Notes under the pieces: generated by a model
What the model saw: only the letters and a program-made list of their open reading frames with translations
The model's database searches: none
Told to the model about the DNA's origin: nothing
In this document: positions 3,773-46,018 of the stretch, piece by piece
Layout of the letters: each line of letters opens with the position of its first letter
Position numbering within the stretch: the stretch's first letter is position 1
Program-made: the position numbers and the translations under genes
NCBI RefSeq assembly: GCF_022842045.1
Contig: NZ_JALHQI010000001.1
Location: forward strand, 9,774-73,773
Source of the DNA: Arenimonas sp.
Lineage (GTDB): Bacteria; Pseudomonadota; Gammaproteobacteria; Xanthomonadales; Xanthomonadaceae
Length of the DNA: 64,000 nucleotides
Direction: 5' to 3'

Positions 3773-5086
3773 TCAGGTGCACGCCAGGGTTAGAACCGGT
3801 GCGAAACCGCCCCCGGGCGTGCGAAAGTTAGTGGTTTGCCCGTGATAGAGACGGGCCGCGAAGAACAGCACTTGCCCCTCATAGGCATAGCCGCGCAGAT
3901 CGACCTTCAGTGGAGTTGATTCGGGTCCTGTGTGTCGCACACTGGGTGGAATCAGGGCCTGCGCCACATAGTCCTGGTCGGCCATCTGCGCCCAAGTCTT
4001 GCGAGTGAGCTTGTCGCCCCGGTAGCTGGCGCGGCTGCCAAAGCCCCCGGCTGGCTTGAAGAACCATTCTTGTCGTGTAGCCCACAGTTGCTCGCGATTG
4101 TCCGCGCTCACCAGCACCGTTCGCGGGACCATCTCGGTGAGCAGCGTCTGCCGATCCGGCGACAGTCCTGCTTTGGCCAAGAATGTGCGGTCTCCCAACA
4201 AAGTCAGGTTGCGCTTGTCGGCCCACAGGGCGTGGGCGCGTGGATGGGGGCTCAGCGCCACCGCACCCGCGAGATACGCCAGGCGCAGGGCCTGCGAGGT
4301 GGGAGCCATCAACGCGAAGTCAGTGAGGCGGTTGTATACGCAGCCGATGCGCTCCTCGCCCAGGCGCAGCGCCCCGTCGACAAACCGCAGGTCGCCTGGG
4401 TCGCAGATCGCCGTCCGATAGCCCCGCGCTTCGAGCGCACGTTTGAACAGCATGAACTCAGCATAAAGATACTGCTGCTCTGGCGCGTGATCCACGATGG
4501 CCACCAGCGAGTTATCGGCGCGTCCGCCCTGCGCCTGCCATTCATCGAGCAGGACGTCGATGGCGGCCTGCTCGGCCTCGCTGGAAGCGGCCGGCGTGCT
4601 CAGCGACGGCAGGCAAAGACGCTGTGCCTTGGCCAAGAGGGCATTGAGCAGCAGGCCACCGGGATTGGTGTTGATCTCGATGAGCCGGGGTCCTGTGGGC
4701 CCCAGATGAAAGTCAAAGCCCAGCAGTCCGCCGGGCGAGCCAGGATCGTGCCGGGCGATGACGGGCGCCCAGGCCAACGCGGTTTCGACGAAGGCAGGGG
4801 TCGCGACGGCTGCGCTCAATGCCTGTACGGCCGCCTCCATCTGCCTAACAGTGTGCTCGGGCACGAAGATCGGCAGTGCGGCGAACAAGTGTGCGTGGGC
4901 GTCGGTCAAGCGACTGGGTGCGCCCTCTGACGCCAGCAGGCCGTTGACTTGCTCACGCACGGAATCCGGATCCACGGCGACGCAGAAACAATCGCGATGC
5001 AGGGCCTCGGCGGTCACGGTTTCCACGCAGGGCGCACCGCACCCCTCCAGGACGCGGCGAATGACGGGCTGGGTCACAACGGTCAC
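3773..5086 (-). CDS. Circularly permuted ATP-grasp (glutathionylspermidine-synthase-like) protein
   Basis: GFDFHL...RLIEINTN, VYNR, ADKRNL, FFKPAGGFGS, YVAQ and KVDLR...ARLY...TNFRTPGGG occur in the permuted ATP-grasp order. Confidence 0.65.
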   Translation of the reverse strand: MTVVTQPVIRRVLEGCGAPCVETVTAEALHRDCFCVAVDPDSVREQVNGLLASEGAPSRLTDAHAHLFAALPIFVPEHTVRQMEAAVQALSAAVATPAFVETALAWAPVIARHDPGSPGGLLGFDFHLGPTGPRLIEINTNPGGLLLNALLAKAQRLCLPSLSTPAASSEAEQAAIDVLLDEWQAQGGRADNSLVAIVDHAPEQQYLYAEFMLFKRALEARGYRTAICDPGDLRFVDGALRLGEERIGCVYNRLTDFALMAPTSQALRLAYLAGAVALSPHPRAHALWADKRNLTLLGDRTFLAKAGLSPDRQTLLTEMVPRTVLVSADNREQLWATRQEWFFKPAGGFGSRASYRGDKLTRKTWAQMADQDYVAQALIPPSVRHTGPESTPLKVDLRGYAYEGQVLFFAARLYHGQTTNFRTPGGGFAPVLTLACT

Positions 5087-5213
5087 GGGACTTGGATCCT
5101 CTCAGCAGGGAGTGCGTGTCGGACGGCGGACGGATCCGATGCTACGCTTGTCACGGGGCTGGGGCGCCGGAACTTTCCGGACCGAAGCCTGTCCGATGCC
5201 CGGAGCCGGTGGG

Positions 5214-5255
5214 TTGACGCAGGTCAAGCCGCCAAGACACCAGAACAGGTACCGT
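5214..5255 (+). promoter_or_regulatory. FNR/CRP-family-like palindrome TTGAC-N4-GTCAA with a -10 element (class II geometry)
   Basis: TTGACGCAGGTCAA at 5214-5227 and TACCGT at 5250-5255; the same layout recurs at 11904-11944. Confidence 0.6.
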
Positions 5256-5265
5256 GCCGCCCAGG

Positions 5266-5676
5266 ATGAAGACATTTCGCCGCCACCGCTTGCGTACCCG
5301 CCTTTCGCTTCTGGCGATGGTGGCGCTGCTGTGGTCGCAATTGGTCCTGGCTGCCCACCCGGCCTGTACCTTGGCCAGTATGGCAATGGACAATGCCCAC
5401 GACGTGTCGACAGGGCACGTCGACCCCGAGCCGGCCCCCTGCCATCCGTCGCCGTCCCCGGAGAGTTCTCCTGTTTGCGATACCCACTGCAGTCGCAGTG
5501 ACCTGAGTCCGGACGTGGCTCGCGTGCTGGCCGTTCCTGCCTTGGGCGCCTGCTCTGTCGTTCCGGTCATGAGCGTGCAGCGCCTGCCTCATGAGCCTGA
5601 TGCCGCCCAAACCCCGGGGCCCTTGCGCTCCTGGCATCGACCGACCGCCCACCCCGCCAGTCTCTTGTTGATTTGA
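5266..5676 (+). CDS. His/Cys-rich leader protein with N-terminal hydrophobic segment, ending HRPTAHPASLLLI
   Basis: Clear paralog at 11955-12377 shares HPAC, PCH, CxxHC and the C-terminal motif; lies directly upstream of the tolC-like gene. The start could be 5254 instead. Confidence 0.75.
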   Translation: MKTFRRHRLRTRLSLLAMVALLWSQLVLAAHPACTLASMAMDNAHDVSTGHVDPEPAPCHPSPSPESSPVCDTHCSRSDLSPDVARVLAVPALGACSVVPVMSVQRLPHEPDAAQTPGPLRSWHRPTAHPASLLLI

Positions 5677-5808
5677 TCCCGCACCGATGACCGGCCGGCG
5701 CCGCTGTGCGCCGTCGCCGGAGACATCGGTTCGGCCGCGTCCTGCGGCCGGTGCCGTCCGACCCACCCCTGCGGCCCCCGTGGCCAGCAGCCGTGCAAGG
5801 CGAACATC

Positions 5809-7116
5809 ATGGGATCCACGCTCACCTTTACCCCCCCGGGGCCCCGCCCTAACCACCCGCGCCGTGGCGCGCTCCGCGCTTTGGCCTTGGCGACACTGCT
5901 CGCGTTCGCGCCAGCGTCCTTCGCTGACACGCCGCTACCCGGAGCCGATGTCGAGTCCGTGCGGACCTGGTTGTTGGGCAACAATCCGGACCTGCAGGCG
6001 ATGCAGGCCGAGGCAGAAGCAGCGCAGGCACGCATTTACCCAGCTGGCGCCCTGCCCGACCCGATGGTCGGCATCTCATTGCAGGGGATCAACCCTGATC
6101 GCCCGAACTTACTGCCCGGTAACGTCGGGTCGGCGACCTACAGCGTGAAACAGCCTATCCCGCTATGGGGCAAGCGCGGGTTGGCCCGCGACGTGGCGCG
6201 ACAGCAGGCTGACGCCATCCAGCTGGAGCGGGAAGCCGCGGCGCTGAGGTTGCTGGCGCAGGCGGAGCAGGCCTATGTGCGCTACTGGCATGCCCGCGAG
6301 GGTGTGGCCGTGGTTGACCGGCTGATCGAACTGTTGGCGCAGATGGAAGAGGTTGCCCGGGTACGGTACGCCTTGGGCGTCGCGGCCCAGCAGGATTCCA
6401 TCCGCGCGCAGGTGGCCCGCACCGCGATGCAGCGCGAACGTATCGAGCGCCTGGCTATCCGTGAAGAGGCCGTGGCCATGTTGAACGCCACCCTCGGCCG
6501 GCCGGCCGACGCCCCCTTGGCCGAGCCGACCGGCGAGCCCGTGCTGGCCGTGCCGGCCGCTTCGCTCGGCGAAGCGCTCGGCCTGCTGGCGGAGGCCCGG
6601 CATCCTGCCTTGCGGGCCAGTACGGCACTGGCTGGGGCGGCCGATACGGCGGCGCAGCTCCAGCGCCGCCGCCGTTTGCCTGATCTCACGCTCGGCGTGG
6701 GCGTCATGCAGCGCGATGATCGCGTCGACGCCTACGAGGTGATGCTCGAAGTGGAGATCCCGCTACAGCGGCGTGCGCTGCGTGAGCGAGAGCGTGAGGC
6801 CCTGCTCATGAGGGACGCCGCAACGGCGCGTGCCGAGGCGATCGGCACCGAACTGCAGGGCCAACTGGGCCAGGCGTGGGCCCAGACGCGGAGTGCACGC
6901 GAGCAGCGCCGCCTGATCGAGCAGACATTGTTGCCGCAGGCGCAGGCCAACTTCGAATCCGCCCTCGCCAGCTACCGGGTCGGCGACGTCGACTTCGGCA
7001 CCTTGTTGGAGGCCTTGGAGGCCTGGCAAGGCGCTGATCTGTCGCGCGTGGATGTCCGTCGTAATGAACTCGTTGGCGCCGCTACGGTGCGCGCCCTGAT
7101 TGGGAGTGTCGAATGA
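5809..7116 (+). CDS. TolC/CusC-family outer membrane efflux protein
   Basis: Signal peptide, ALPDPMV, QPIPLWGKRGL, and ASYRVGDVDFGTLLEA repeats; first gene of an RND triplet. Confidence 0.85.
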   Translation: MGSTLTFTPPGPRPNHPRRGALRALALATLLAFAPASFADTPLPGADVESVRTWLLGNNPDLQAMQAEAEAAQARIYPAGALPDPMVGISLQGINPDRPNLLPGNVGSATYSVKQPIPLWGKRGLARDVARQQADAIQLEREAAALRLLAQAEQAYVRYWHAREGVAVVDRLIELLAQMEEVARVRYALGVAAQQDSIRAQVARTAMQRERIERLAIREEAVAMLNATLGRPADAPLAEPTGEPVLAVPAASLGEALGLLAEARHPALRASTALAGAADTAAQLQRRRRLPDLTLGVGVMQRDDRVDAYEVMLEVEIPLQRRALREREREALLMRDAATARAEAIGTELQGQLGQAWAQTRSAREQRRLIEQTLLPQAQANFESALASYRVGDVDFGTLLEALEAWQGADLSRVDVRRNELVGAATVRALIGSVE

Positions 7117-8456
7117 ATCGGTTCAATTGGAGTGTCCTGGCCCTCGCTGTTGGAGCGGCGCTGGCCCTGGGGTGGTGGTCGGGACGCGCCTCGGCGCCGG
7201 ACGCCGGGTCGCTGAACGTCCAGGAGACCTCGGCCGAATCGGGCGAGCGCAAAATCTTGTACTACCGCAACCCCATGGGTCTGCCCGACACCTCGCCCGT
7301 GCCCAAGAAGGACGCCATGGGCATGGACTACATCCCGGTATTTGAGGGCGGAGAGCCCGCGGCGGAGCCCGGAACGGTCGTGTTGCCGCCCGACAAGGTC
7401 CAGAAATTGGGCGTGCGCACCGAGGTGGCCGTTCGAGAGGCCTTGGTCGCCAACGTCCGTGCGAGCGCCTCGGTGCAGGTGGACGAGACCCGGCAATTTG
7501 TAGTCGCCCCGCGCTTCGAGGGCTGGATAGAGACCCTGTACGCGAACGAGACCGGCATGACGGTGCGGCGCGGCGAGCCGCTGATGGCGATCTACAGCCC
7601 GGAGCTGATCGCGGCCCAAGGCGAGTACGCGGTGGCCGACGCGGCGGCGAAACGTCTGGCCGACAGTGATCCGGCCAGCGCCGCCACCATGCGCCAGTTG
7701 CGCGACGCGGCGCAAACACGCCTGCGCAACTGGGAGGTGGCAGGGGCACATGTCGCTCGCCAGGGCCGCGAGGCGCGCCTGGTGCTGTCGGCACCCGCCG
7801 ATGCCGTTGTGGTCGACAAGCCTGTCGTCCAGGGTGACCGATTCACCCCGGGCCAGACCATCCTGCGGCTCGCCGACCTCTCCACGGTCTGGGTGATCGC
7901 CGAGGTGCCGACATCGGCGTCGGCCGATCTGGCGATCGGCAGCCAGGCCAGCTTCGAGACGCCCAGCCTGCCCGGACAGCGCTTCGAAGGCGAGGTGAGC
8001 TTCCTCCAGCCGGTCGTCAACCTGACCAGCCGCACGGTCGGCGTGCGAATCGAACTCCCGAACCCCGACGGGGTCCTGCGTCCCGGGCTCTTTGGTGATG
8101 TGGAACTGCAGGGCCGCGGCGGGGACCCGACCGTCGTGGTGCCGCGATCGTCCGTCATCGACTCCGGGACGCGCCAATTGGTCCTGGTGGAGACGGCCCC
8201 GGGCCGATTCGCGCCACGCGAGGTTCGCTTGGGTGCTCGGGCCGGTGATCGGGTCGCCGTGCTGTCGGGCGTCGAGGCCGGGGAGAAGGTCGTGGTCTCG
8301 GCGAACTTCCTGATCGATGCGGAGAGCAACCTGCGATCGGCCATGCAGGGCATGGAACATGGATCGCCTCCCCCGGCCGAGGATCACAGCGCCCATGAGG
8401 CGACGGCAGCACCACCGGCCGAAGACCCGCACGCCGCCCACACGGGAGGGCAGTGA
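7113..8456 (+). CDS. cusB: CusB-like periplasmic adaptor (MFP) of a heavy-metal RND pump
   Basis: KILYYRNPMGLPDTSPVPKKDAMGMDYIPV, lipoyl-like halves, C-terminal ANFLIDAESNL; ATGA overlap with the upstream gene. Confidence 0.88.
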   Translation: MNRFNWSVLALAVGAALALGWWSGRASAPDAGSLNVQETSAESGERKILYYRNPMGLPDTSPVPKKDAMGMDYIPVFEGGEPAAEPGTVVLPPDKVQKLGVRTEVAVREALVANVRASASVQVDETRQFVVAPRFEGWIETLYANETGMTVRRGEPLMAIYSPELIAAQGEYAVADAAAKRLADSDPASAATMRQLRDAAQTRLRNWEVAGAHVARQGREARLVLSAPADAVVVDKPVVQGDRFTPGQTILRLADLSTVWVIAEVPTSASADLAIGSQASFETPSLPGQRFEGEVSFLQPVVNLTSRTVGVRIELPNPDGVLRPGLFGDVELQGRGGDPTVVVPRSSVIDSGTRQLVLVETAPGRFAPREVRLGARAGDRVAVLSGVEAGEKVVVSANFLIDAESNLRSAMQGMEHGSPPPAEDHSAHEATAAPPAEDPHAAHTGGQ

Positions 8457-8457
8457 C

Positions 8458-11400
8458 ATGCTCGCCCGCCTGATCGAATGGTCGGTCCGCAATGTCTTCC
8501 TGGTCCTGGTGATGGCAATCGCCATCACCGCGGCGGGCATTTATGCCGTCGCCCGAACCCCGCTCGATGCCCTGCCCGATCTCTCCGATGTGCAGGTGAT
8601 CGTCTTCACTGAAGTGCCCGGCCAGGCGCCGCAGGTGGTCGAGGACCAGGTCACCTACCCGCTGACCACGGCCATGCTCGCGGTGCCCAAGTCCAAAGTC
8701 GTGCGCGGCTTCTCGTTCTTCGGGGCCTCGTTCGTCTACGTGATCTTTGAGGACGGCACCGACATCTACTGGGCACGCTCGCGCGTGCTTGAGTACCTGA
8801 ACTTTGCGTCCAAGAAGCTGCCCGAAGGCGTGACCCCGACGCTGGGTCCGGACGCCACGGGCGTGGGCTGGGTCTACCAATACGTGCTCGAGGGCGAACA
8901 ATGGTCACTCGACCAGCTACGCGCCATCCAGGACTGGTATGTGCGCTACCAGCTGACCAAGGCCCCGGGCGTCGCCGAAGTGGCCAGCGTCGGCGGCTTT
9001 GTTCGCCAGTACTCGGTCACGGTCGATCCCGGCCGGTTGCGCCAGTACGGCATTCCTTTGTCGAGAATCTCGGAGGTGATCGCCAGCAGCAATCGGGACG
9101 TCGGCGGGCGCGTGCTTGAAATGGCGGAAACGGAGTACATGATCCGCGGCCGCGGTTACCTGCGCGGCATTGAAGACATTGAGCAACTGGTCGTCAAGGC
9201 CGAGGACGGCACCCCGGTCCTCGTGGGCGACCTGGCCCGGGTCGAGCTGGTGCCCGATGAACGCCGTGGCGTCACCGAGCTCAACGGAGAGGGGGAGGTG
9301 GTCGGCGGTATCGCGGTGGCGCGCTATGGCGAGAACGCCCTGACGGTCATCGATGGGATCAAACAGAAAATCGCGGAGATCGGTCCTGGCCTGCCTGAAG
9401 GTGTCTCAATCCGCGCCGTCTACGATCGCTCCGACCTGATTCACCGGGCTATTGCGACCCTGCGCTGGACCCTGCTCGAAGAGAGCGTGATCGTGGCGCT
9501 TGTGTGCATCGTGTTCCTGTTCCATGTCCGCAGCGCGCTGGTCGCAATCATCATGCTGCCCGTGGGCGTGCTGATCGCCTTCCTGGCGATGCGCCTGCTG
9601 GGCATGAACTCGAACATCATGAGTCTGGGCGGCATTGCGATCGCCATAGGCGCGATGGTGGACGCCGCGATCGTGATGATCGAGAACGCGCACAAGCACA
9701 TCGAGCGCGACGATGGAACCAAACCGCGTATCCAGCTGATCATCGATGCCTGCCGCGAGGTCGGCCCCGCCCTGTTCTTCAGCCTGCTGATCATCACGGT
9801 GTCGTTCCTGCCGGTGTTTGCCCTGGAAGCGCAGGAAGGCCGGCTGTTCCATCCGCTGGCGTTCACAAAGACCTTTGCTATGGCGGGCGGCGCGCTGTTG
9901 TCGGTGACCCTGGTCCCGGTCCTGATGCTGCTGTTCGTGCGCGGCAAGATCCTGCCGGAAGCGAAGAATCCGGTGAACCGGTTCCTGATCGCGATCTACC
10001 GGCCGGTGATTGCCGTCGTTCTCAAGCACAAGGCGGCCACGCTGGTGCTGGCCCTGGTTGCCCTGCTCGGAACGGCCTGGCCTGCCTCGCGCCTGGGCAG
10101 CGAGTTCATGCCCACGCTCAACGAGGGCACCCTGCTGTACATGCCCGCGTCACTCCCGGGCATGTCGGTCACCAAGGCGGCGGAATTGCTCCAGCAGCAG
10201 GACCGGATCATCAAGACCTTCCCGGAAGTCGAGTCGGTCTTTGGCAAGGCCGGGCGCGCCCTGACGGCCACGGACCCGGCACCGCTGGAGATGTTCGAGA
10301 CCGTCATCAACCTTAAACCCGAAGACCAATGGCGCGAGGGCATGACCATCGACGCCCTTATCGCCGAGATGGACACGGCGCTGCAGTTCCCCGGCGTGGC
10401 CAATTCCTGGACCATGCCGATCAAGGCCCGCACGGACATGCTGGCCACCGGTATCCGCACGCCGATCGGCATCAAGGTGTTCGGAACGGACCTGGGGGAG
10501 ATGGAGCGACTGGCCAAGGAGATCGAGGCCGCAGTGCGGACCGTGCCGGGCACCACCAGCGCCTACGCCGAGCGTCTCACCGGCGGGTTCTACCTCGATA
10601 TCGAACCCGACCGTCGCCAGTTGGCGCGTTACAACTTGCCGGTCGGCGAGCTGCAAGACGTCATCGCGGCCGCGCTGGGTGGCGAGATGGTCACCACGAC
10701 GGTGGAAGGGCGTGAGCGCTTTGGCGTGATCGTGCGCTATCCCAGGGAATTGCGCGACAGTCCGGAAACCATTGCGCAGCAAGTGTTGGTCCCCACCATG
10801 GACGGCGCCCAGATTCCCTTGGGCGAGTTGGCGCACGTGACGGTTCGCAAGGGCGCGCCGTCGATCCGTACCGAGAACGCCCTGCTATCGGCCTACATCT
10901 ACGTCGACACCCGCGATCCGGACATGGGGGCCTACGTTCGCTCCGCACAGGAGGCCGTAGCCCAGTCGGTCACCTTCCCGCCGGGCTACTACGCCACCTG
11001 GAGCGGCCAGTACGAGTACATGCAGCGGGCGATCGCCAAGATGAAAATCGTGGTGCCGGTGACGCTGTCGCTGATCTTCCTGCTCTTGTACCTGAACTTC
11101 CGCCGGGTCACCGAGTCGCTGATCGTGATGCTGTCCGTGCCCTTTGCCTTGGTCGGCGGCGTGTGGCTGATGTGGGCGCTGGACTACAACCTCAGTGTCG
11201 CGGTTGCCGTTGGCTTCATTGCGCTGGCCGGTGTCGCGGCCGAAACCGGCGTGGTGATGCTGATCTACCTTGACCATGCCTTGGAAGCCCGCGCCAAAGA
11301 CCGGGAGGCGAAAGGCGAGGCGCTGACCTTGGCGGACATCACGGACGCCATCGTCGAGGGCGCCGTCGAACGCGTCCGACCCAAGATGATGACCGTGGTC

Positions 11401-11619
11401 GCCATTATGGCTGGCCTGCTGCCGATCATGTGGAGCACCGGCACCGGTTCGGAAGTCATGCGGCGCATTGCCGCGCCGATGGTCGGCGGGATGGTGTCGT
11501 CCACGATCCTGACGCTGGTCGTGATCCCGGTGATCTACGCGCTGGTCAAGCGCCGGGAGCTGCTGGGCCCCCGGGCGCAGGCCGTCCCGGTCGCCGGATT
11601 GTCGGAGGCGGCGCGATGA
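8458..11619 (+). CDS. cusA: CusA/CzcA-family heavy-metal efflux RND transporter (Cu/Ag type)
   Basis: LDALPDLSDVQVIV, GPDATGVGWVYQY, GAMVDAAIVMIEN, ERVRPKMMT; Met positions in EFMPTLNEG...APLEMFET...TDMLATG. Confidence 0.92.
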   Translation: MLARLIEWSVRNVFLVLVMAIAITAAGIYAVARTPLDALPDLSDVQVIVFTEVPGQAPQVVEDQVTYPLTTAMLAVPKSKVVRGFSFFGASFVYVIFEDGTDIYWARSRVLEYLNFASKKLPEGVTPTLGPDATGVGWVYQYVLEGEQWSLDQLRAIQDWYVRYQLTKAPGVAEVASVGGFVRQYSVTVDPGRLRQYGIPLSRISEVIASSNRDVGGRVLEMAETEYMIRGRGYLRGIEDIEQLVVKAEDGTPVLVGDLARVELVPDERRGVTELNGEGEVVGGIAVARYGENALTVIDGIKQKIAEIGPGLPEGVSIRAVYDRSDLIHRAIATLRWTLLEESVIVALVCIVFLFHVRSALVAIIMLPVGVLIAFLAMRLLGMNSNIMSLGGIAIAIGAMVDAAIVMIENAHKHIERDDGTKPRIQLIIDACREVGPALFFSLLIITVSFLPVFALEAQEGRLFHPLAFTKTFAMAGGALLSVTLVPVLMLLFVRGKILPEAKNPVNRFLIAIYRPVIAVVLKHKAATLVLALVALLGTAWPASRLGSEFMPTLNEGTLLYMPASLPGMSVTKAAELLQQQDRIIKTFPEVESVFGKAGRALTATDPAPLEMFETVINLKPEDQWREGMTIDALIAEMDTALQFPGVANSWTMPIKARTDMLATGIRTPIGIKVFGTDLGEMERLAKEIEAAVRTVPGTTSAYAERLTGGFYLDIEPDRRQLARYNLPVGELQDVIAAALGGEMVTTTVEGRERFGVIVRYPRELRDSPETIAQQVLVPTMDGAQIPLGELAHVTVRKGAPSIRTENALLSAYIYVDTRDPDMGAYVRSAQEAVAQSVTFPPGYYATWSGQYEYMQRAIAKMKIVVPVTLSLIFLLLYLNFRRVTESLIVMLSVPFALVGGVWLMWALDYNLSVAVAVGFIALAGVAAETGVVMLIYLDHALEARAKDREAKGEALTLADITDAIVEGAVERVRPKMMTVVAIMAGLLPIMWSTGTGSEVMRRIAAPMVGGMVSSTILTLVVIPVIYALVKRRELLGPRAQAVPVAGLSEAAR

Positions 11620-11637
11620 TCGGCCCCCTCCCGTCCA

Positions 11638-11668
11638 TTGACCTGCGTGCGGCACCCAGCTTTAGGGT
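11638..11668 (+). promoter_or_regulatory. MerR-type promoter (19-bp spacer), paralog of the 12565 site
   Basis: TTGACC-TGCGTGCGGCACCCAGCTT-TAGGGT; 25 of 31 positions identical to 12565-12595. Confidence 0.6.
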
Positions 11669-11903
11669 CGACAGACCGCGCTCGTGCCGCGCGGTGAACC
11701 GACGCCGAGTCCGCGCCGAGGCTAGGGGGCGGCCGTACGGCCCGGGCCTGTCGCCCGGGCCGACGCGCCGCTCCCGGAGCCTGCGGTCCGCTTGCCTCCC
11801 GGTCCTACCTCAGGAGTTCGCCTTGACCCATCACGACTCACATCCACTTCCGCCGTCGCGGACACTCGAGCCAAGGCATGCGCGGACCTTGCGGGCTCGT
11901 CAA

Positions 11904-11944
11904 TTGACGTAGGTCAAAGCCGGTCCCTAGGAGAGGTGTAACGT
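11904..11944 (+). promoter_or_regulatory. FNR/CRP-family-like palindrome with a -10 element
   Basis: TTGACGTAGGTCAA at 11904-11917 and TAACGT at 11939-11944. Confidence 0.6.
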
Positions 11945-11954
11945 GCTGAGTAGG

Positions 11955-12377
11955 ATGAACCGCTTCCGCCGCCACCGCTGGCGTACTCCCATTTCGCTGC
12001 TGGCGATGCTGGCGCTGGTATGGGCACAACTGGTTCTGGCGGGCCATCCGGCGTGCATGGGCTCGGCGATGGCTTCGATGCCCGCCCATGCCGAACATGC
12101 CGATCATGGCCAGTCCGCGGGAGCCGATCCGGCCCCACCGTGCCATGGCACTCCGCTCAATGGGGACACGCCCCTGTGCGCGTCGCACTGCAGTCAAGGC
12201 GACCTGAGCAAGGAGGCGCCGCGACTGGAGTCGGTACCGACCCTGGGTCCTGTGCCAATCATGTCGGTCGTGGCCGTGCAGCGACTGCCTGATGCGGCGG
12301 GCCGGGCGGTGGCAGCGCGTCCTCGTGTCGCCTGGCACCGACCTACCCCCCATCCAGCCAGCCTCCTGCTGATCTGA
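11955..12377 (+). CDS. Second His/Cys-rich leader protein ending HRPTPHPASLLLI
   Basis: Paralog of 5266-5676 (MNRFRRHR vs MKTFRRHR; GHPAC, PCHG, CASHC). The start could be 11943 instead. Confidence 0.75.
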   Translation: MNRFRRHRWRTPISLLAMLALVWAQLVLAGHPACMGSAMASMPAHAEHADHGQSAGADPAPPCHGTPLNGDTPLCASHCSQGDLSKEAPRLESVPTLGPVPIMSVVAVQRLPDAAGRAVAARPRVAWHRPTPHPASLLLI

Positions 12378-12392
12378 TCCCGCGCCGATGCT

Positions 12393-12420
12393 CGACCGGC
12401 GCCCGTAAGGGCGCCGGTCG
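12393..12420 (+). promoter_or_regulatory. Perfect 12-bp GC hairpin just after the leader ORF stop (possible attenuator or pause element)
   Basis: CGACCGGCGCCC-GTAA-GGGCGCCGGTCG with no U-tract; a weaker equivalent lies at 5696-5713. Confidence 0.5.
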
Positions 12421-12564
12421 CCTCGGTGCAGCCGCCGTGTGCGCGGCCTGCCCCGCCGACTCCTACCGCAACGCCGTCAGGCGGCGGTACGCGCGAGGCC
12501 AAGACCATGAGATTTCCCCTTCCACGAAGAGCTGTCGCCATCAGCGTTAGCGCTCCGGCGCGCC

Positions 12565-12595
12565 TTGACCTGTGTCCGACACTCAGGTTTACGGT
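12565..12595 (+). promoter_or_regulatory. MerR-type promoter/operator upstream of the merR-family gene
   Basis: TTGACC, 19-bp spacer with dyad (CCTGTGTC...GACACTCAGG), then TACGGT. Confidence 0.75.
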
Positions 12596-12622
12596 CTCCG
12601 GCAAGTTCTGCGGGAGCACGCG

Positions 12623-13138
12623 ATGACAGCCCATCTGCACAAGACCGAGCCGCCGATGACGGTGCGCCGCCTGGCGAAATCGGGTGGCGTGACGGTGCAC
12701 GTCGTGCGCAACTACCTGCGCCGCGGCCTGCTGCGGGCGGCCAGGCACACGGAGGCCGGCTACCAACTGTTCTCGACGGCGGAGCTGCATCGCCTGCACT
12801 TCATTCGCACGGCGCAGCGCTTGGGCTTCACTCTGACCGAAATCGAGGAAATCCTGCGGCGCAGTCGCCAGCGCCGGAGTCCGTGTCCGCTCGTGCGCGA
12901 CATCATCAGCCGTCGGCTGGCGGAAACCCGTGACCAGCTCGAGCAGCTCCTGGCGCTGCAAACGCGAATGGCGCAGGCCGTGGCCCAGTGGTCCCGCCTG
13001 CCCGACGCCGTGCCGACGGGTAATGACGTCTGCGCACTGATCGAAGCCGTCGCGGCCAGCGAGGCCGCGGTCGTCCCCAAATCCACCCCGCGGCGCCTTC
13101 TGGGGGGTCGCAACGCTTCAGAGGAGACGGCCTCATGA
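12623..13138 (+). CDS. MerR-family metal-responsive regulator
   Basis: N-terminal HTH MTVRRLAKSGGVTVHVVRNY, FIRTAQRLGFTLTEI, and Cys in SPCP and VCALIE. Confidence 0.88.
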   Translation: MTAHLHKTEPPMTVRRLAKSGGVTVHVVRNYLRRGLLRAARHTEAGYQLFSTAELHRLHFIRTAQRLGFTLTEIEEILRRSRQRRSPCPLVRDIISRRLAETRDQLEQLLALQTRMAQAVAQWSRLPDAVPTGNDVCALIEAVAASEAAVVPKSTPRRLLGGRNASEETAS

Positions 13139-13419
13139 GCCGCCCTCGTCCATCGCCATTGTCTTGCGGCCTGTCTCTGGCTGTAACGGCGGTCGCGCTT
13201 TACCTGGCATGCGCGCTGGTCGTGGCGTGGTCCCCCTGCACCCTGGCCGCCGGCCTGGGCCTGATCGTGCACGGCCTGAGCCCGTCGAGCCTCTCACCGG
13301 CGGTCGGCGAACTGCGCTGGAGCGCGGTGCTGATCGGTTCGCTCGCGATCGCGGGCCACGCCTTTGTGGCCGGCGCCCTCTTCGCCACTGTCAATCGCTT
13401 GATTGGAGGTCACCGATGA
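13135..13419 (+). CDS. Small two-helix membrane protein (DUF5676-like)
   Basis: Hydrophobic, ALYLAC...VHGL...W pattern; ATGA overlaps at both ends. Confidence 0.6.
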   Translation: MSRPRPSPLSCGLSLAVTAVALYLACALVVAWSPCTLAAGLGLIVHGLSPSSLSPAVGELRWSAVLIGSLAIAGHAFVAGALFATVNRLIGGHR

Positions 13420-13643
13420 AACGCACTCACGTACCCCTGCTGCTCGCCAGCCTGTTCGCGGCTCCGCTGGCCGTCGCCGCACTGCCGGAAGCCGACGGCC
13501 CGACCGATGACACGCCCGTCGTCTTCCACTTCGCCGCGTCGGCATTGCCCACGGCGATACCGGCCAAGGGCGGCAATGCCGCCCTGACGGCCGCGGACGC
13601 GGCGGCGCTGGTCACTTACCTGCGCACGCTCGACAAGTCCTGA
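13416..13643 (+). CDS. Small secreted protein, possibly an internally deleted cytochrome c remnant
   Basis: Signal peptide; C-terminus LTAADAAALVTYLRTL resembles the last helix of class I cytochrome c, but there is no CxxCH. Confidence 0.45.
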   Translation: MKRTHVPLLLASLFAAPLAVAALPEADGPTDDTPVVFHFAASALPTAIPAKGGNAALTAADAAALVTYLRTLDKS

Positions 13644-13674
13644 TCCCGCCCCCTACCCGCCAGGAGTCCTTTCC

Positions 13675-14007
13675 ATGACGACGCCTACAACCCATCCCCA
13701 CGCGCCTGCCCCGCGACGGGCTCGAATGATTTTCTGGATCTTGATGGGATTCGCGGCTATTTACCTGCTCGCAGAGCACCGCCTGCACTTGTCCGGACTC
13801 TGGCGGTGGCTGCCGATCCTGATCCTGCTGGCCTGCCCGTTGCTCCACTTCTTTGGCCACGGGAGCCATGGCGGTCATGGAGGACACGGCGATCCTGACG
13901 CAGACGGCGCGGCCACCAACGGCGCGCCGCCGCCCGATGCGTCCACCCCGCCGGACGCGAGCCCACGGACGCCGCGCCCGCACACGCATCGCGGAGACCT
14001 GCCATGA
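13675..14007 (+). CDS. DUF2933-like His-rich membrane protein
   Basis: EHRLHL...LILLACPLLHFFGHGSHGGHGGHG. Confidence 0.75.
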   Translation: MTTPTTHPHAPAPRRARMIFWILMGFAAIYLLAEHRLHLSGLWRWLPILILLACPLLHFFGHGSHGGHGGHGDPDADGAATNGAPPPDASTPPDASPRTPRPHTHRGDLP

Positions 14008-14657
14008 ACCCCATTGATTCCGGCTACGGGCTGTGGGCGCTGGCCGTGCTCAACGCTGCGTTTTTCATCTTCTTCGCCTGGAGCTTCTACACCCCGCTCA
14101 CGACCCGGGACTGGCGCAGCTTCGGCTTGTATTCCGCGTTCGTCGTCGCGCTGTTCGCGGAGATGTACGGCTTCCCGCTGGGCCTGTTTCTGCTGTCGGG
14201 CTGGCTCTCGTCGCGCTTCCCGGAGGTCAACTGGCTCAGCCACGACGCCGGTCACGTGTTTGAGATGATGTTTGGTTGGCGGAGCAATCCGCACTTCGGT
14301 CCCTTCCACATCCTGAGCTTCGCTTTGATCGGCGGCGGCTTCTGGTTGCTCGCCCGCGCCTGGCCGGTGCTCTATCACGCGCAGCGTCGCGGTGAGCTGG
14401 CGCAGACCGGTCCCTACGCCCGCCTTCGGCATCCGCAGTACGCCGGGTTTGCGCTAATCATGACCGGCTTCCTGGTACAGTGGCCGACACTAATCACCCT
14501 AATGCTGTACCCGGTGATGCTCATCAGCTATGTGCGATTGGCGATCAATGAGGAGCGTGAGACGCGGGCACGTTTTGGTGCCGTCTACGAGCGCTACATG
14601 GCGGCGGTGCCGAGGTTCCTTCCGCGCCGTCGCCGGACGCAGGCGGTGGCCTCATGA
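14004..14657 (+). CDS. Isoprenylcysteine carboxyl methyltransferase-family membrane protein
   Basis: [46 protein letters not shown]. Confidence 0.8.
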
Positions 14658-17062
14658 AGGCCGATCCGAACACGACGGCAGTGAGAACCTGGCCGATCGG
14701 CGACATGCTGACCGAAGGCTGCGCCCGGACCCTGGCCGCCACGATCCGCGAACTGCCGGGCGTTGAGGCCGCGGATGCCAACTTCGCGACGGGCATGTTG
14801 CAGGTGCGCTACCTGCGCAGCGCGACCGAGCCCACCCGCATAGCGTCGGCTATACGCGCCTGTGGCTTCGCGTGTCGTGCCCCGTCGGCCGAGGCCAGCG
14901 CCCCGGCAGTTCCCCCCGCTGCCGGTCCCGCGCCCGACGACCATGCCGGGCACGGCAGCGGCCACGGGCACACAAAGCCCGCGGTCGCCGCGCCCCAGGC
15001 CAAGGTCGATCACGCGGGCCATGGTCCAGAGGCCTCCGCCAAGACCGGCTCAGACCCGCACGAGGGCATGCACCACGGAGGCGATCTGCACGCAGCAGCG
15101 GCGGACATGCGGCGGCGTTTCGTGATCGCCCTGGTGTTCTCGATCCCACTGTTCATCTGGTCACCGATGGGATTGATGAGCGCGCCCCCGACGCCGTTCG
15201 GCCTGACCGAGAACGTCTGGTTGTGGCTGTTGGCCAGCGGCGCGGTGATCTACCCGGGCTGGCCGTTCTTCACGGCGGCGATCCGCTCGCTGCGCCGCGG
15301 TGTGCTGGACATGGCGGTGCTGGTGCTGCTCAGCGTCGGCACCGGCTACGGCTTCAGCCTCGGGGCGACGTTCCTGTTCGACGGGCCCAATTTCTACGAG
15401 GCCTCCTCGGTCCTCATGACCTTCATCCTGCTGGGCCACTGGCTGGAAATGCGGGCCCGCGCCGGCGCCTCGGACGCGATGAAGGCCTTGCTAAAGCTCT
15501 CGCCGCCGCGGGCGATCGTGCGCCGGGACAACGTCGATGTCGAAATCGCCACCGACGACGTGCAGGTGGGTGACGTGGTCGTCGTGCGGCCGGGTGCCAA
15601 GGTGCCGGTCGACGGCGAGGTCCTCGAGGGCCAGTCCCAGGTGGACGAATCCATGCTCACCGGCGAATCGATGCCGGTGAAGAAGGTGCCGGGCTCGCTC
15701 GTGGTCGGCGGCACGATCAATCGCAGCGGCGCCTTCACCTACCGCGCCACCAAGGTCGGCGCCGACACCGCGCTGGCCCAGATCATCCAACTCGTCCAGG
15801 AGGCGCAGAACTCCAAGGCCCCGGCCCAGTTGCTGGCCGACCGCGCCTCGCAGTGGCTGGTGCTGGCGGCGATCGTGATCGGCGTGCTGACCTTCGCCGT
15901 TTGGTTCTGGTGGCTCGGCCAGCCCCTGCTCTTCGCGCTCACCCTGACCATCACCGTCTTCGTGATCGCCTGCCCCGACGCGCTCGGCCTGGCGACACCC
16001 ATGGCGATCATGATCGGCACCGGCATGGGCGCCCGGCACGGCATTCTGTTCAAGCACGCCGAGGCCGTCGAACAATGCGCGCGGCTGGACGTGGTGATCT
16101 TCGACAAGACCGGCACGTTGACGGTGGGCCAGCCCGACGTCGTGCAGGTGGTATCGGCCCCGGGGTGGGACGAGGTAACCCTCATCGATGTGGCGGCCGC
16201 CGTGGAAACCCACTCCGAACACCCGCTGGCCCAGGCGATCCTCAAGCACGCGGGCCCGGTCCAGGAGAGGGCGACGGACTACACCAACATCGACGGCCAG
16301 GGCGCCATGGGGCGCGTGACGGGTCGCTGGGTGCACTTGGGCAACCGGCTGCTGATGACCGCGCAAGGGGTGGCGCTGGACGCCCTGGACGCACAGGCCG
16401 AGGCGCTCAAGGGCGGCGGGCGCACCGTGATCTACGTCGCCGTGGATCGCAAGCTCGCCGGCGTGATCGCCATTGCCGATGCCATCCGCCCCACATCCCG
16501 GGCCACGATCCAGGAGCTTCACCGGCGCAAGGTAAGGGTGGCGATGATAACCGGCGACAACCGGCCCACGGCCGAGCGCGTGGCCGCGGACCTGGGCATC
16601 GACATCGTGCTGGCGGACGTACTGCCCGGCGAAAAGGCCGCCGAGGTCAAGAAGCTGCAGGCCCAGGGCCTGAAAGTCGGCATGGTGGGCGATGGCGTCA
16701 ACGATGCCCCGGCGCTCACGCAGGCCGAGGTCGGCTTTGCGATCGGTGCCGGCACCGACGTCGCGATCGACAGCGCCGACATAGTGCTGATGCGCAGCGA
16801 CCCCTATGACGTCGTGCGGGCGATCACGATCGCCCGCGGGACGCTGCGGAAAATGCACCAGAACCTGGCCTGGGCCGTGGGCTACAACGTCCTGGCCTTT
16901 CCGCTGGCCGCTGGCGTCCTCTTCCCGTTCGTTCTCTCGCCCGAAGTCGCCGCGCTGTCGATGTCCGGCAGTTCGGTGATCGTGGCTGTCAATGCGCTGT
17001 TGCTCAAGCGCCTACCCTTGGCGACGGTTTCGAGCGCCGCCGAGGATTCCCCCGCTGTTTAA
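14654..17062 (+). CDS. Copper-type P1B ATPase with a CPD intramembrane motif
   Basis: [36 protein letters not shown] and MSGSS; His-rich linker; degenerate N-terminal HMA domain. Confidence 0.9.
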
Positions 17063-35604: not shown

Positions 35605-35994
35605 ATGCGTACTTCCCCTCCCCTGCTGATGGCCCGACTTCGCGCATCCGTGCGCGTGGCCGCGTGGGTGCTGTTGGTGTTCCTGCTCAAGGTGGGCATG
35701 GTCGCGGCCTGCACCGTGGATGAGATGCAGGACAGCACTTGGGGAGTGACCAGCACCCAGGTGCCGGCGACGGATGCCGCGCTTCCGGCCGAGGCATCGG
35801 AGGCGGATGAACCATCGTCGCTCCTCGCGCATGCGGCGGGCGGCTGCTTGGATTGCCATTGTCACCATGCGGCGGCCTTGCCGCCCATGACCGTCACCCT
35901 GGCCGGACCGCCGGCCATGCCCCGCGTCCTACCCCCGCCCGTCGCCATGCCGATCGGCGCCGCACGCAACGAGCTTCGCCCGCCCATTCTCTGA
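35605..35994 (+). CDS. CopL/CzcI-like His/Cys leader protein ending RPPIL
   Basis: Hydrophobic N-terminus, CLDCHCHH, C-terminal ELRPPIL; start uncertain (35560, 35605 or 35629). Confidence 0.7.
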   Translation: MRTSPPLLMARLRASVRVAAWVLLVFLLKVGMVAACTVDEMQDSTWGVTSTQVPATDAALPAEASEADEPSSLLAHAAGGCLDCHCHHAAALPPMTVTLAGPPAMPRVLPPPVAMPIGAARNELRPPIL

Positions 35995-36059
35995 GCCCCC
36001 TCGTTTTCGCTCCCTGACGCCCATGCGTCGGGGTCGACGTGTGCTCAGAGGATGTTCCC

Positions 36060-37352
36060 ATGCGTTTGATTACCCCCCCGCGACGCCTTCGCGTCGCGTT
36101 GCTGCCTGCGATTGTCCTGCTCTTGGCAGGCGCGTTGGCCGCGCCCACCCATGCCGCCGCTCCCGCTGCGTCTCCTATCGCACTGCGCGATGCCGTGACC
36201 GCAGCCTGGCGCGCCCATCCCAGCGCTCGGGCAACCGAGGCCACCTTGGCCGCCGCTCGCGCCCGTGCCGATGCCGCCGGCCGCCCGCTGTACAACCCCG
36301 AGCTCCAATTCTCGGCCGATGACGAAGGGGCAGACCGCACCACCACCGCCGGCGTCAGCCTGGCCCTGGACCTGAGCGGCAAGCGTCGCGCCCGGCGCGA
36401 CGCGGCCGCGTCGCAGTTGGACATCGCCGTGGCCCAGGCCCGGCTGAGCCGACGTGATTTCGTGGCCGCCTGGCTGGTGGGTTGGGCGGATTGGCAAAGC
36501 GCGTCACGGCGGGTGCAGCAAGGCGAGCAACGCCTGGCGCTGATCTCCCGATTTGCCGATCTGGCCGACAAGCAGTTCGGCGTGGGCGACATCTCGTCGC
36601 TTGAACGGGATCTGGCCCGGCTGGCCCGCGATGAAGCCGAAGCGGAACAGGCGGCGCTGCTGGCCGAAGCCGCCGAGGCCGAGGAAGCCTTCCGCAACGT
36701 CGGCGGACAGCCCGACGCCGTGGCCTCGGACTCGGCGTGGTCGCAGGCGCTGCCGGATGTGGCGCCCGCTCCCACGACCTGGGAGGCCTTGCCGGAATGG
36801 CAGATCGCGCAGGCCCAGTCCGAAGGGGCGGCCCGTCAGGTCACCGTCGCACAACGCGACCGAGTTCCGGACCCGACGCTCGCGCTCACCGGCGGCCGAA
36901 TCGACTACGGTCCCGTCTCGGACAACGTGGTGGGCGTGTCGCTCAGCGTGCCGCTGTTCGTGCGCAACCCCTACCGGGCCGAGGTCGTGGCCGCGCTTGC
37001 CGATGCCGATGCCGCAGCAGCCCAGGCCGACATCACCGGGGCGCAGTTGGCCTCGCGGGCCCAGCGCACGGCGGCCAGTTATGCCGCGGTCCGTCGTGCC
37101 TTTGCCCGCTGGAGCCAAAGTACCGGTACCGATGTCGAAAAACGGGCCGAGCTGCTGGAACGCCTCTGGCGCGCCGGCGAGCTCTCGACCGCTGACTACC
37201 TGCTCCAGCTCAAGCAGACCCTGGATACCGCCCTTGCCGGCGCCGCGCTGGAAGGTCAGCTCTGGCGCCGCGCCACCGATTACCTCGCCGCCACCGGCCA
37301 GCTCGAAGCCTGGCTCGGAATGAATGACGCGACTGGAGAAACTTCGCGATGA
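36060..37352 (+). CDS. czcC: CzcC-like TolC-family outer membrane protein
   Basis: Signal peptide, YNPEL, PDPTL, LSVPLFVRN; first gene of an RND triplet. Confidence 0.85.
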   Translation: MRLITPPRRLRVALLPAIVLLLAGALAAPTHAAAPAASPIALRDAVTAAWRAHPSARATEATLAAARARADAAGRPLYNPELQFSADDEGADRTTTAGVSLALDLSGKRRARRDAAASQLDIAVAQARLSRRDFVAAWLVGWADWQSASRRVQQGEQRLALISRFADLADKQFGVGDISSLERDLARLARDEAEAEQAALLAEAAEAEEAFRNVGGQPDAVASDSAWSQALPDVAPAPTTWEALPEWQIAQAQSEGAARQVTVAQRDRVPDPTLALTGGRIDYGPVSDNVVGVSLSVPLFVRNPYRAEVVAALADADAAAAQADITGAQLASRAQRTAASYAAVRRAFARWSQSTGTDVEKRAELLERLWRAGELSTADYLLQLKQTLDTALAGAALEGQLWRRATDYLAATGQLEAWLGMNDATGETSR

Positions 37353-45521: not shown

Positions 45522-45920
45522 ATGTCCCTGCTTCGCACCGTCGGCCACCTGCTGCTCGCCTTGGCGTTGATCGCCAACGCCGGGCTGCCGTCGGTCGCGT
45601 CTGCGGCGGATCATGCCGCGCACCAGAGTGCGGGTATAGACCAGGACATGGCATCGGCGGGGCATGCGATGGTGGATGGCGACATGGCGTCGTGCCATGA
45701 CGGGGCCACCGCCGCGCCCGTCGTTCCCAGCCCGGACGTGCCGCTGGACTGCTGTGACGGCGGCACCTGCGCCTGCAGCTGCCTGCATCACGCCCCGGTC
45801 GTCGTGATCAGCGCCGCCCCGTGGGCAGTTTCACCCTATCGCTGGGTGGCCCAACTCGGCCGCCTGGTGTCCGTCCCGGCCGCGCCCTCGGCGCCGGCCA
45901 TTCGACCTCCGATCGCCTAA
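45522..45920 (+). CDS. copL: CopL-like metal-binding leader protein ending RPPIA
   Basis: HLLLALALIAN...CHDG...CCDGGTCACSCLHH...RPPIA, upstream of the cop cluster. Confidence 0.75.
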   Translation: MSLLRTVGHLLLALALIANAGLPSVASAADHAAHQSAGIDQDMASAGHAMVDGDMASCHDGATAAPVVPSPDVPLDCCDGGTCACSCLHHAPVVVISAAPWAVSPYRWVAQLGRLVSVPAAPSAPAIRPPIA

Positions 45921-46018
45921 GCCCTCTCGGCGGACCTTGATCCGCCCCATTCGCTCGACCCGCGTTCCGGGTCGTGTTGCCCGTGGCCTGTCGCCGCGGG
46001 TGCTTTGGAGGGTTTCCC

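Follow-up and report, generated by a model that had tools for sequence, protein, structure and literature searches.

Paired leader ORFs with a conserved His-Pro ending precede copper and silver efflux genes in Arenimonas: a candidate family of cis-acting metal-sensing leaders

Introduction

A 64,000-nucleotide (nt) stretch of an Arenimonas sp. genome (assembly GCF_022842045.1, contig NZ_JALHQI010000001.1, positions 9,774 to 73,773; hereafter the window, numbered from its first letter) carries two small, similar open reading frames (ORFs), one in front of the copper and silver efflux genes cusCBA and the other in front of an operon for a MerR-family regulator and a copper ATPase. Both end in the same residues immediately before the stop codon. 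The question raised by this locus is whether the two ORFs encode ordinary exported proteins or leaders that act in cis on the genes behind them. As set out below, we consider it likely that each is a cis-acting metal-sensing leader; the way in which such a leader might work is argued for more tentatively.

Results

The two ORFs are paralogs within a duplicated unit

BLASTP comparison of the two ORFs (coordinates in Table 1) established that they are paralogs, with 50% identity over the full length (E 3e-42); the 3.08-Mb assembly contains no copy besides these two. They have in common a hydrophobic stretch behind a basic N-terminus (RRHRLRTR-LSLLAMVALLWSQLVLA), the potential ligands H31-P-A-C34, C59 and C71-x-x-H74-C75, and the C-terminal ending WHRPT(A/P)HPASLLLI, followed by TGA. 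The export signal was judged by inspection, on the basis of the basic n-region and a 17-residue hydrophobic core that is modelled as a confident helix. Inspection likewise led us to reject export by the twin-arginine translocation (Tat) pathway: R-L-R comes after the RR pair, a strongly hydrophobic core stands 6 residues further on, and the sequence departs from S/T-R-R-x-F-L-K. A lipoprotein was rejected in the same way, as C34 has no preceding lipobox. Orthologs of copy 2 occur in three congeneric genomes (81-88% identity), and a window leader ORF is 97% identical to an ORF of an Arenimonas metagenome-assembled genome (MAG).

The similarity extends beyond the stop codon, where both copies continue with TGATCCCGC(A/G)CCGATG and a compound GC-rich hairpin, and the next ATG lies 132 nt past the stop in copy 1 (position 5809) and 129 nt past it in copy 2 (position 12507). 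DNA alignment of the two copies delimited a duplicated unit: it starts at an upstream palindrome, takes in the ORF and the intergenic DNA, and stops just past this next ATG. Thus ATG 12507 corresponds to the cusC start at 5809, and the equal spacing reflects homology of the duplicated unit rather than coincidence. A preliminary description of the window had pointed to the duplicated ORFs with their basic-hydrophobic signal, HPAC and CxxHC ligands and shared ending, to conservation and a hairpin beyond the stop, and to a next ATG about 130 nt downstream in both copies; the alignments bear out each of these observations.

The family spans the order and stays linked to its target genes

A word-indexed search returned 109 homologous clusters, nearly all of 130-140 amino acids (aa) and nearly all unnamed, and a full profile search of 1.84 billion representatives gave 475 matches at E<=1e-3, 95 at E<=1e-10 and 28 at E<=1e-30. 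These numbers go well beyond what chance would produce. Matches were found in 90 of 301 genomes of the same taxonomic family. The pattern WHRPT[APR]HPA is encoded at 106 loci in named genomes; those classified below class all belong to the Lysobacterales, except one MAG labelled Chromatiaceae, and the carriers include Arenimonas, Tahibacter, Silanimonas, Lysobacter, Luteimonas, Thermomonas, Pseudoxanthomonas, Stenotrophomonas and Vulcaniibacterium. The ORF family that the preliminary description had proposed from two copies holds at least 237 distinct sequences (median length 136 aa), which were gathered by their C-terminal motif, the pattern itself fixing some C-terminal positions. Searches of Pfam, NCBIfam and PDB sequences with the window ORFs, the family and its sister families gave no match, and neither did a tblastn search of plasmids.

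Directly behind the leader, 80 named loci carry cusC (63), a MerR-family gene (8) or another gene (5), with 4 loci that could not be judged; cusC or merR thus follows directly on the same strand at 71 of the 76 evaluable loci. Moreover, cusC followed by cusB was found directly downstream on the same strand at 28 of the first 30 loci and at most of the next 30. The distance from the leader stop to cusC ranges from 77 to 137 nt, with a median of 129 nt. The leader-to-MerR arrangement is repeated in a second, divergent lineage in which the leaders stop at TAG (loci L056 and L058).

Conservation acts on the peptide and runs to its last residue

The consensus of the 14 C-terminal positions across the 237 sequences is [W]-[H]-[R/G]-P-T-x-H-P-A-x-[L/I/V]-L-L-I, and the motif lies exactly at the C-terminus in all 237; the same positions were also seen in nearly all complete full-length profile matches. 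Numbered back from the C-terminus, H-8 is kept in 235 and P-7 in 236 of the 237 sequences. Furthermore, P-11, T-10, H-8, P-7, L-3 and L-2 are unchanged in 53 unique loci while all synonymous codons are used for each of them, so the constraint acts on the peptide and not on the RNA. The stop codon itself is TGA in 47 of these 53 loci, TGA being the usual stop at this G+C content.

Four cysteines and two histidines are conserved in the family; C71 is invariant, and H74 and C75 are each at least 90% conserved. The second Cys of CxxHC always stands 60-66 residues from the C-terminus, with a mode of 61 (82 of 149 sequences), and 50 residues separate this Cys from the Pro of RPT, whereas the distance from the first Cys to CxxHC varies between 29 and 47 residues. 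Outside the motifs conservation is poor. In an AlphaFold2 model built from 101 sequences, the N-terminal helix alone is confident and extends to residue 48 and the mature part is coil (predicted local distance difference test, pLDDT, 64.7; predicted template modelling score, pTM, 0.29); the mature part is accordingly predicted to be disordered.

Codon usage at the motif departs from that found elsewhere in the operon. The Arg codon at position -12 (Arg125, 5638-5640 in the window) is the rare CGA in 55% of loci, whereas CGA makes up 8.6% of Arg codons elsewhere in the leader and 6.1% of those in cusC, an approximately 7-fold enrichment, and CCT is three times commoner at Pro -11 than at other Pro codons; these counts come from related loci and are not independent of one another. 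Such a bias could mean selection for slow decoding at the motif.

These data bear directly on the view that the leaders assist the pump in trans, as accessory proteins that bind Cu(I)/Ag(I) in the periplasm or attached to the membrane; the C-terminus would then be a docking or turnover motif and the spacer hairpins would set only mRNA stability and stoichiometry. The four Cys and two His that this exported protein conserves are what such a role would call for. The hydrophobic end L-L-I-COOH (F-x-I-COOH in the sister families described below) could explain conservation to the last residue without any arrest at the stop, hydrophobic C-terminal ligands being the target of periplasmic PDZ proteases, which these endings fit. 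In addition, W23 and Q25 (5332-5340 in the window), inside the hydrophobic N-terminal segment, are invariant in the family alignment (LLWSQ; LLFxQ in the sisters). An invariant Trp and Gln within a signal core are unusual for a cleaved signal peptide, so the leader N-terminus may be an uncleaved anchor, possibly with a function of its own, or have a specific partner. Finally, the accessory role is the one proposed for CusD of Cupriavidus metallidurans, a CMxHC protein encoded upstream of cusCBA that has been read as a chaperone (PMC10304878).

On the other side, the model contains no confident fold, sequence outside the motifs is poorly conserved, and the ligand-to-stop spacing is fixed when spacing elsewhere is variable. 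The leader gene also stays directly upstream of its target (71 of 76), was duplicated together with its spacer before a regulator gene rather than before a pump, and has no Shine-Dalgarno (SD) sequence and probably a leaderless start; its relative CutF showed no complementation in trans (PMC8456105). We therefore regard an accessory protein acting in trans as improbable. The resemblance of CusD and SilD (operons cusDCBAF and silDCBA) to the family, judged from published descriptions, consists in a small Cys/His protein with CMxHC directly upstream of cusCBA, and both have been labelled CutF-like (PMC9973294); they differ in that CusD is described as a Tat-exported lipoprotein with Met-rich motifs (PMC10304878). 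In C. metallidurans without added metal cusD is expressed and cusCBAF is not (PMC10304878), which, by analogy, fits control between leader and pump in a comparable operon.

The family is kin to leaders that end in a proline pair

Weaker profile matches (E 1e-12 to 1e-7) share the N-terminal two-thirds of the family and end in ...RPTEPPASVRHCRFLI, ...RATAPPLSIRNCCFRI or ...DPPPRQRFCSLLI. These sisters, hereafter PP-type, end in ...RPTxPPAS... with F-x-I-COOH at the C-terminus, and they also precede outer-membrane efflux protein (OEP) genes of resistance-nodulation-division (RND) operons. An hhalign comparison of the family profile with 30 PP-type sisters gave a probability of 99.6% (E 1.6e-24) over 126 columns that include the C-terminal motif, and its register sets WHRPTAHPASLL on L-ERPTEPPASVR, so that H129-P130 stands at the Pro-Pro of the sisters. 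The ligand-to-C-terminus distance in the sisters, 58-64 residues, is like that of the HP-type family; the distances to HP and to PP differ by about 4 between the two families.

The published definition of CutF-like proteins asks for fewer than 150 aa, a signal peptide, PP among the last 15 residues and a neighbour on the same strand (PMC9973294), and the PP-type sisters fit it. The present family has the length, the signal, the same-strand neighbour (the cusC start 77-137 nt downstream) and a CxxxC motif, and PP occurs in the last 15 residues of just 2 of its 237 sequences; the published survey left it out because a PP no more than 15 residues from the C-terminus was a requirement. CutF-like genes most often have a gene for an outer-membrane efflux protein as neighbour (PMC8456105, PMC9973294, bioRxiv 10.1101/2025.02.05.636593). 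CutF of Rhodobacter capsulatus, from the cutFOG operon, has 118 aa, C69xxH72C73 and the ending P109EPEGPPPRL118 (PMC8456105). Homology by hhalign connects the family to the PP-type proteins of the CutF-like definition, whereas the likeness to CutF itself is one of description: a small exported multi-Cys protein with CxxHC and a conserved extreme C-terminal motif, encoded by the first gene of a copper-detoxification operon and followed by a structured spacer RNA. The family differs from CutF in that H-P without Pro-Pro occupies the aligned place and WHRPTxHPAxLLLI is kept to the last residue; the second Cys lies 61 residues from the C-terminus compared with 45 in CutF; and the spacer of about 129 nt holds three hairpins instead of one short SD-shielding stem-loop, with shielding unsupported in the family.

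CruR (Bp2923) of Bordetella pertussis, which is reported to be poorly structured, has 45 residues between CXXC and RAPP, and its 162-nt spacer is subject to Rho-dependent termination (PMC9426467). The family resembles it as an exported, poorly structured product of an upstream ORF heading a copper operon, with a Cys motif held at a fixed distance from a C-terminal Arg/Pro motif (the arrest motif in CruR) and with a long spacer (about 129 nt) that lacks an intrinsic terminator, the setting of Rho-dependent attenuation. Unlike CruR, it has CxxHC for CXXC and no RAPP, its motif reaches the C-terminus where that of CruR stops three residues short, and its target is an exporter, for which metal should promote expression, rather than an importer that CruR shuts off. 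Against PF11162 (DUF2946/CruR) neither window ORF matched at E<=1, 2 of 28 family members did so at E ~1.1, and the PP-type sisters gave no match.

The preliminary description had likened the ORFs to the CutF and CruR leaders and had suggested that their C-terminus marks a separate class. As a matter of anatomy the likeness holds, in the export signal, CxxHC and fixed spacing to a conserved C-terminal motif. The ending does differ from RAPP and RPPI, but the suggested independence does not survive the hhalign result: judged by homology, the family is a diverged CutF/CruR-type branch that lost the diprolyl, not an independent class. What distinguishes it is the lack of a proline pair, conservation to the stop, the 129-nt three-hairpin spacer and the reuse of the cassette before MerR/CopA genes under an FNR-type box.

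A conserved FNR-type box lies upstream of the leader

The palindrome upstream of both copies is TTGACG(C/T)AGGTCAA. With a criterion of at least 8 of 10 matches to TTGAT/ATCAA, an FNR/CRP-type box (TTGAY-N4-RTCAA) was found in 43 of 51 unique upstream regions of the family, centred 40.5-46.5 nt before the ATG. A -10-like element (TAAGCT/TACCGT) lies 6-12 nt before the leader ATG, and a Shine-Dalgarno sequence is absent. This class II geometry (-41.5) suggests that transcripts start 0-5 nt before the ATG and that the leader mRNA is near-leaderless. Neither a CusR-type box nor a MerR-type promoter was seen upstream of cusCBA.

The conserved box could regulate by itself, and PP has been replaced by HP; the ORF might accordingly be a decayed relative of the PP-type leaders that lost arrest together with the diprolyl and persists as a mere spacer ORF under an FNR-type promoter alone. 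The replaced motif is nevertheless under extreme purifying selection (H-8 and P-7 as given above) with synonymous change free, and the Cys/His ligands and their spacing are conserved across an entire bacterial order, which makes decay very unlikely.

The spacer RNA is conserved, and no intrinsic terminator was found in it

Three hairpins (HP1 to HP3) occupy the spacer in most clades, with HP3 lying before the Shine-Dalgarno sequence. In an alignment of 15 sequences, 9 of the 21 base pairs of HP1 showed compensatory changes and 97% of cells were paired, compared with 27-46% when the partners were slid, and this pairing was reached in 0 of 500 shuffles. A covariance-model alignment of 25 sequences from more clades, which leans toward its covariance model, gave 14 of 21 compensatory pairs and 94% paired cells. 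The covariance model matched copy 2 weakly (E 0.05) and its ortholog L033 at E 0.008. HP2 takes the form GCCGTG-loop-CACGGC in most relatives and GGCCGC/GCGGCC in the clade of the window. RNAalifold on a MAFFT alignment of all clades returned no structure, the hairpins being misaligned, and the subset alignment and covariance model were used instead. No intrinsic terminator and no consensus sigma-70 promoter was found, and HP2, without a U-run, is not a canonical terminator; a classical terminator/antiterminator attenuator was dropped on this ground. An Rfam scan of positions 5000-13000 gave one sub-threshold chance match, inside cusC.

The hairpins invite comparison with the output of CutF, in which the same cis-acting sensor would act on translation: the ribosome would remodel the spacer RNA and free the cusC start, with transcription unregulated. 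The ribosome might open HP1, might open a long-range helix that joins the stop region to cusC codons 2-3, or might pass on to re-initiate. HP1 begins 8-10 nt past the stop, at the point where unwinding by a ribosome on the stop codon would set in, and in minimum-free-energy folds of single sequences from several clades the SD or AUG is paired with the stretch that follows HP2. The long-range helix is formed by GATCCC:GGGATC in the window (5675-5680 with 5811-5816) and by GATGCC:GGCATC in locus L008 and its relatives, two clades that differ by one compensatory change; it would close the whole spacer as one domain. In copy 2, the stop of a 39-codon ORF overlaps the merR start, an arrangement through which a translational signal would be relayed. 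Against such an output, the SD lies about 110 nt from the stop, and the authors of the CutF work hold that stem-loop melting is limited to short spacers; modelled SD accessibility was unchanged by ribosome masking; complementarity to the SD was not above shuffles; and the stop-start helix was no better than controls and is missing in several clades. Control of translation through the spacer thus appears unlikely, even though CutF works in this way.

Features and neighbouring genes in the window

The features of both units are collected in Table 1. CusA scored 1223 bits against E. coli CusA and 538 bits against ZneA, from which the pump is assigned to the Cu(I)/Ag(I) kind. The ATPase behind copy 2 matched TIGR01511 with 605 bits. 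The 39-codon ORF is also open in three congeners, which is weak evidence because open frames are expected at such G+C. The MerR-type promoter of copy 2 sits inside this ORF, and the same promoter element is present in loci L056 and L058. At locus L030, and probably at L111 and L113 too, leader and spacer are intact and the cusC frame is broken after about 60 codons; these may be decaying copies.

Table 1. Positions of the two leader units and their neighbouring genes in the window
Feature	Position	Strand	Remarks
FNR/CRP-type palindrome, copy 1 (TTGACGCAGGTCAA)	5214..5227	+	52 nt before leader ATG
Leader ORF, copy 1	5266..5676	+	136 aa, ATG start; export signal residues 1-30, H31xxC34, C59, C71xxH74C75
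Putative arrest module, copy 1	5632..5676	+	codons W123-I136 (WHRPTAHPASLLLI) and TGA stop
Hairpin HP1, copy 1	5684..5729	+	starts 8-10 nt past stop; covariation in relatives
Hairpin HP2, copy 1 (CGGCCGC-N5-GCGGCCG)	5732..5750	+	sequence kept across clades
HP3 (5769-5790), AAGG Shine-Dalgarno (5797-5800), cusC start codon (5809-5811)	5769..5811	+	
cusC, cusB, cusA (Cu(I)/Ag(I) RND efflux pump)	5809-7116, 7113-8456, 8458-11619	+	Pfam OEP; NCBIfam CusA/CzcA, CusB
FNR/CRP-type palindrome, copy 2 (TTGACGTAGGTCAA)	11904..11917	+	51 nt before leader ATG
Leader ORF, copy 2	11955..12377	+	140 aa, ATG start; ends WHRPTPHPASLLLI-TGA (codons 12333-12377)
HP1 (12382-12429) and HP2 (12431-12447), copy 2	12382..12447	+	weak covariance-model match, E 0.05
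39-codon ORF from ATG equivalent to cusC start	12507..12626	+	TGA overlaps ATG 12623 of MerR-family gene (ATGA)
MerR-type promoter: TTGACC (12565), 19-nt spacer with dyad, TACGGT (12590)	12565..12595	+	read from sequence
MerR-family regulator (12623-13138), DUF5676, DUF2933, PEMT-like gene, copper P1B-type ATPase (14654-17062)	12623..17062	+	behind copy 2

Two further leader ORFs in the window are of the RPPI type. The first (35605-35994) ends ...ELRPPIL, lies before a czcC-like gene (36039-37352) and gave no NCBIfam match; the second (45522-45920) ends ...AIRPPIA, contains CCDGGTCACSCLHH and is followed by a TolC-like gene (45974-47860) that has a Met/His-rich tail. The island thus holds four leader ORFs from at least two families without detectable sequence relationship, and hhalign of the PP-type sister profile against a window RPPI-type leader gave a probability of 5%. 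The RPPI-type CopL of Xanthomonas and Stenotrophomonas resembles the present family in belonging to the same order and in being the first gene of a copper operon; the family ending is unlike IRPPIA or LRPPIL. For the CopL family, which we take to be NCBIfam NF033807, no match was found at E<=1 with the window ORFs and none with the PP-type sisters. CopL is reported, where PMC9973294 cites work on it, to have no action in trans.

Discussion

The leaders fit the picture of a nascent-chain sensor in four respects: the distance is fixed at 61 residues, the tail is invariant, the mature part is predicted to be disordered, and the cis-linkage is strict. From these features we infer metal binding, arrest, its position and a Rho-type output, arranged in a specific chain of events (co-translational Cu(I)/Ag(I) sensing, a stop-proximal pause and Rho-type output) that is plausible, if just short of probable as a whole. 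The N-terminal signal would direct the nascent leader to the Sec translocon. With the ribosome at the last codons, CxxHC would stand 60-66 residues behind the peptidyl-transferase centre, just across the membrane on its periplasmic side, and the last 14 residues (WHRPTxHPAxLLLI) would occupy the upper exit tunnel. Metal on the Cys/His ligands would alter the pulling force on, or the folding of, the exported part and prolong a pause at or next to the stop. The waiting ribosome would cover the C-rich end of the ORF and abut HP1, Rho and polarity would be kept off the spacer of about 129 nt, and cusCBA would be expressed; in copy 2, read-through would continue into the MerR/CopA-type operon. In the absence of metal the peptide would be released and probably degraded, and expression would end between leader and cusC. 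The sign of the response would be that of CutF, with metal promoting the pause and so expression.

Two of these choices rest on arguments of their own. We place the pause at the stop codon or beside it, where TnaC and PepNL of E. coli arrest, because conservation runs to the last residue and the ligand-to-C-terminus distance is equal in the HP and PP families, unlike the distance to HP or PP. A Rho or polarity output, as in CruR and tna, is favoured because no terminator was found, no SD switch is supported and the spacer is long; the strongest C-rich, G-poor stretch coincides with the last 45 nt of the leader ORF. Precedents exist in the Cu-induced stalling of CutF (PMC8456105, PMC9973294, bioRxiv 10.1101/2025.02.05.636593) and in the arrest of TnaC and PepNL at UGA (PMC8450073, PMC11890864). 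In both of the latter, conserved residues run to the codon before UGA, and TnaC has a conserved Trp 12 residues from the C-terminal residue, compared with 13 in the family; in tna the arrested ribosome prevents Rho-dependent termination in a long spacer (PMC8450073, PMC11890864). TnaC and PepNL are nevertheless unrelated to the family in sequence, being cytoplasmic peptides of 24 and 14 aa that sense tryptophan inside the ribosome, whereas the family peptide has about 136 aa and is exported, would sense any ligand outside the cytoplasm and would have its arrest at the stop by analogy.

Several points weigh against a leader that arrests in this way. The diprolyl that drives CutF stalling and the RAPP of CruR are absent, and R-P-T-x-H-P-A is only a putative arrest sequence. 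Once the protein is released, its conserved hydrophobic end (phi-x-phi-COOH) could instead serve as a tag for degradation or of the PDZ type, and TGAT is a good termination context. At the RNA level, codons for Pro, His, Thr and Ala account for the C-richness of the ORF end, the heavy structure of the spacer is poor for Rho loading, and the folding z-scores of the single sequences are modest (-1.8 and -2.5 for the two copies). Moreover, in equilibrium folding, masking by a ribosome at the stop, P-7 or P-11 left SD accessibility unchanged (0.41 versus 0.41-0.45), and complementarity between the segment after HP2 and the SD or AUG was no better than in shuffles (mean z -0.3).

A more ambitious form of the arrest reading would have a peptide free of proline pairs block or delay termination itself, with the stop codon in the A site, the invariant last 14 residues in the tunnel and CxxHC, 61 residues upstream, sensing Cu(I)/Ag(I) across the membrane. 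It would do so as a portable cassette of FNR-type class II promoter, leaderless leader mRNA and three-hairpin spacer that combines oxygen and metal signals and that the Lysobacterales would have put to use ahead of an RND pump as well as a MerR/CopA operon. We doubt that all of these elements hold together.

Metal-sensing arrest peptides are a recent class (CruR in 2022, CutF between 2021 and 2025), so far defined by a proline pair. The order-wide family described here keeps the rest of the design, with an invariant His-Pro for Pro-Pro and a peptide conserved to the stop. As a conserved FNR-type box stands where no Cu-responsive promoter element was seen before cusCBA, with a geometry suggestive of a near-leaderless start, the metal control of the pump may be largely post-transcriptional. 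Cultured carriers exist in Stenotrophomonas, Lysobacter, Thermomonas, Pseudoxanthomonas and Arenimonas metalli, and the system is therefore testable. Should the leaders prove to be chaperones acting in trans, they would simply represent a new CusD-like accessory protein. If, on the other hand, the leader stalls, arrest tied to extracytoplasmic sensing would need neither polyproline nor EF-P and may act at termination, and published surveys would under-count such leaders.

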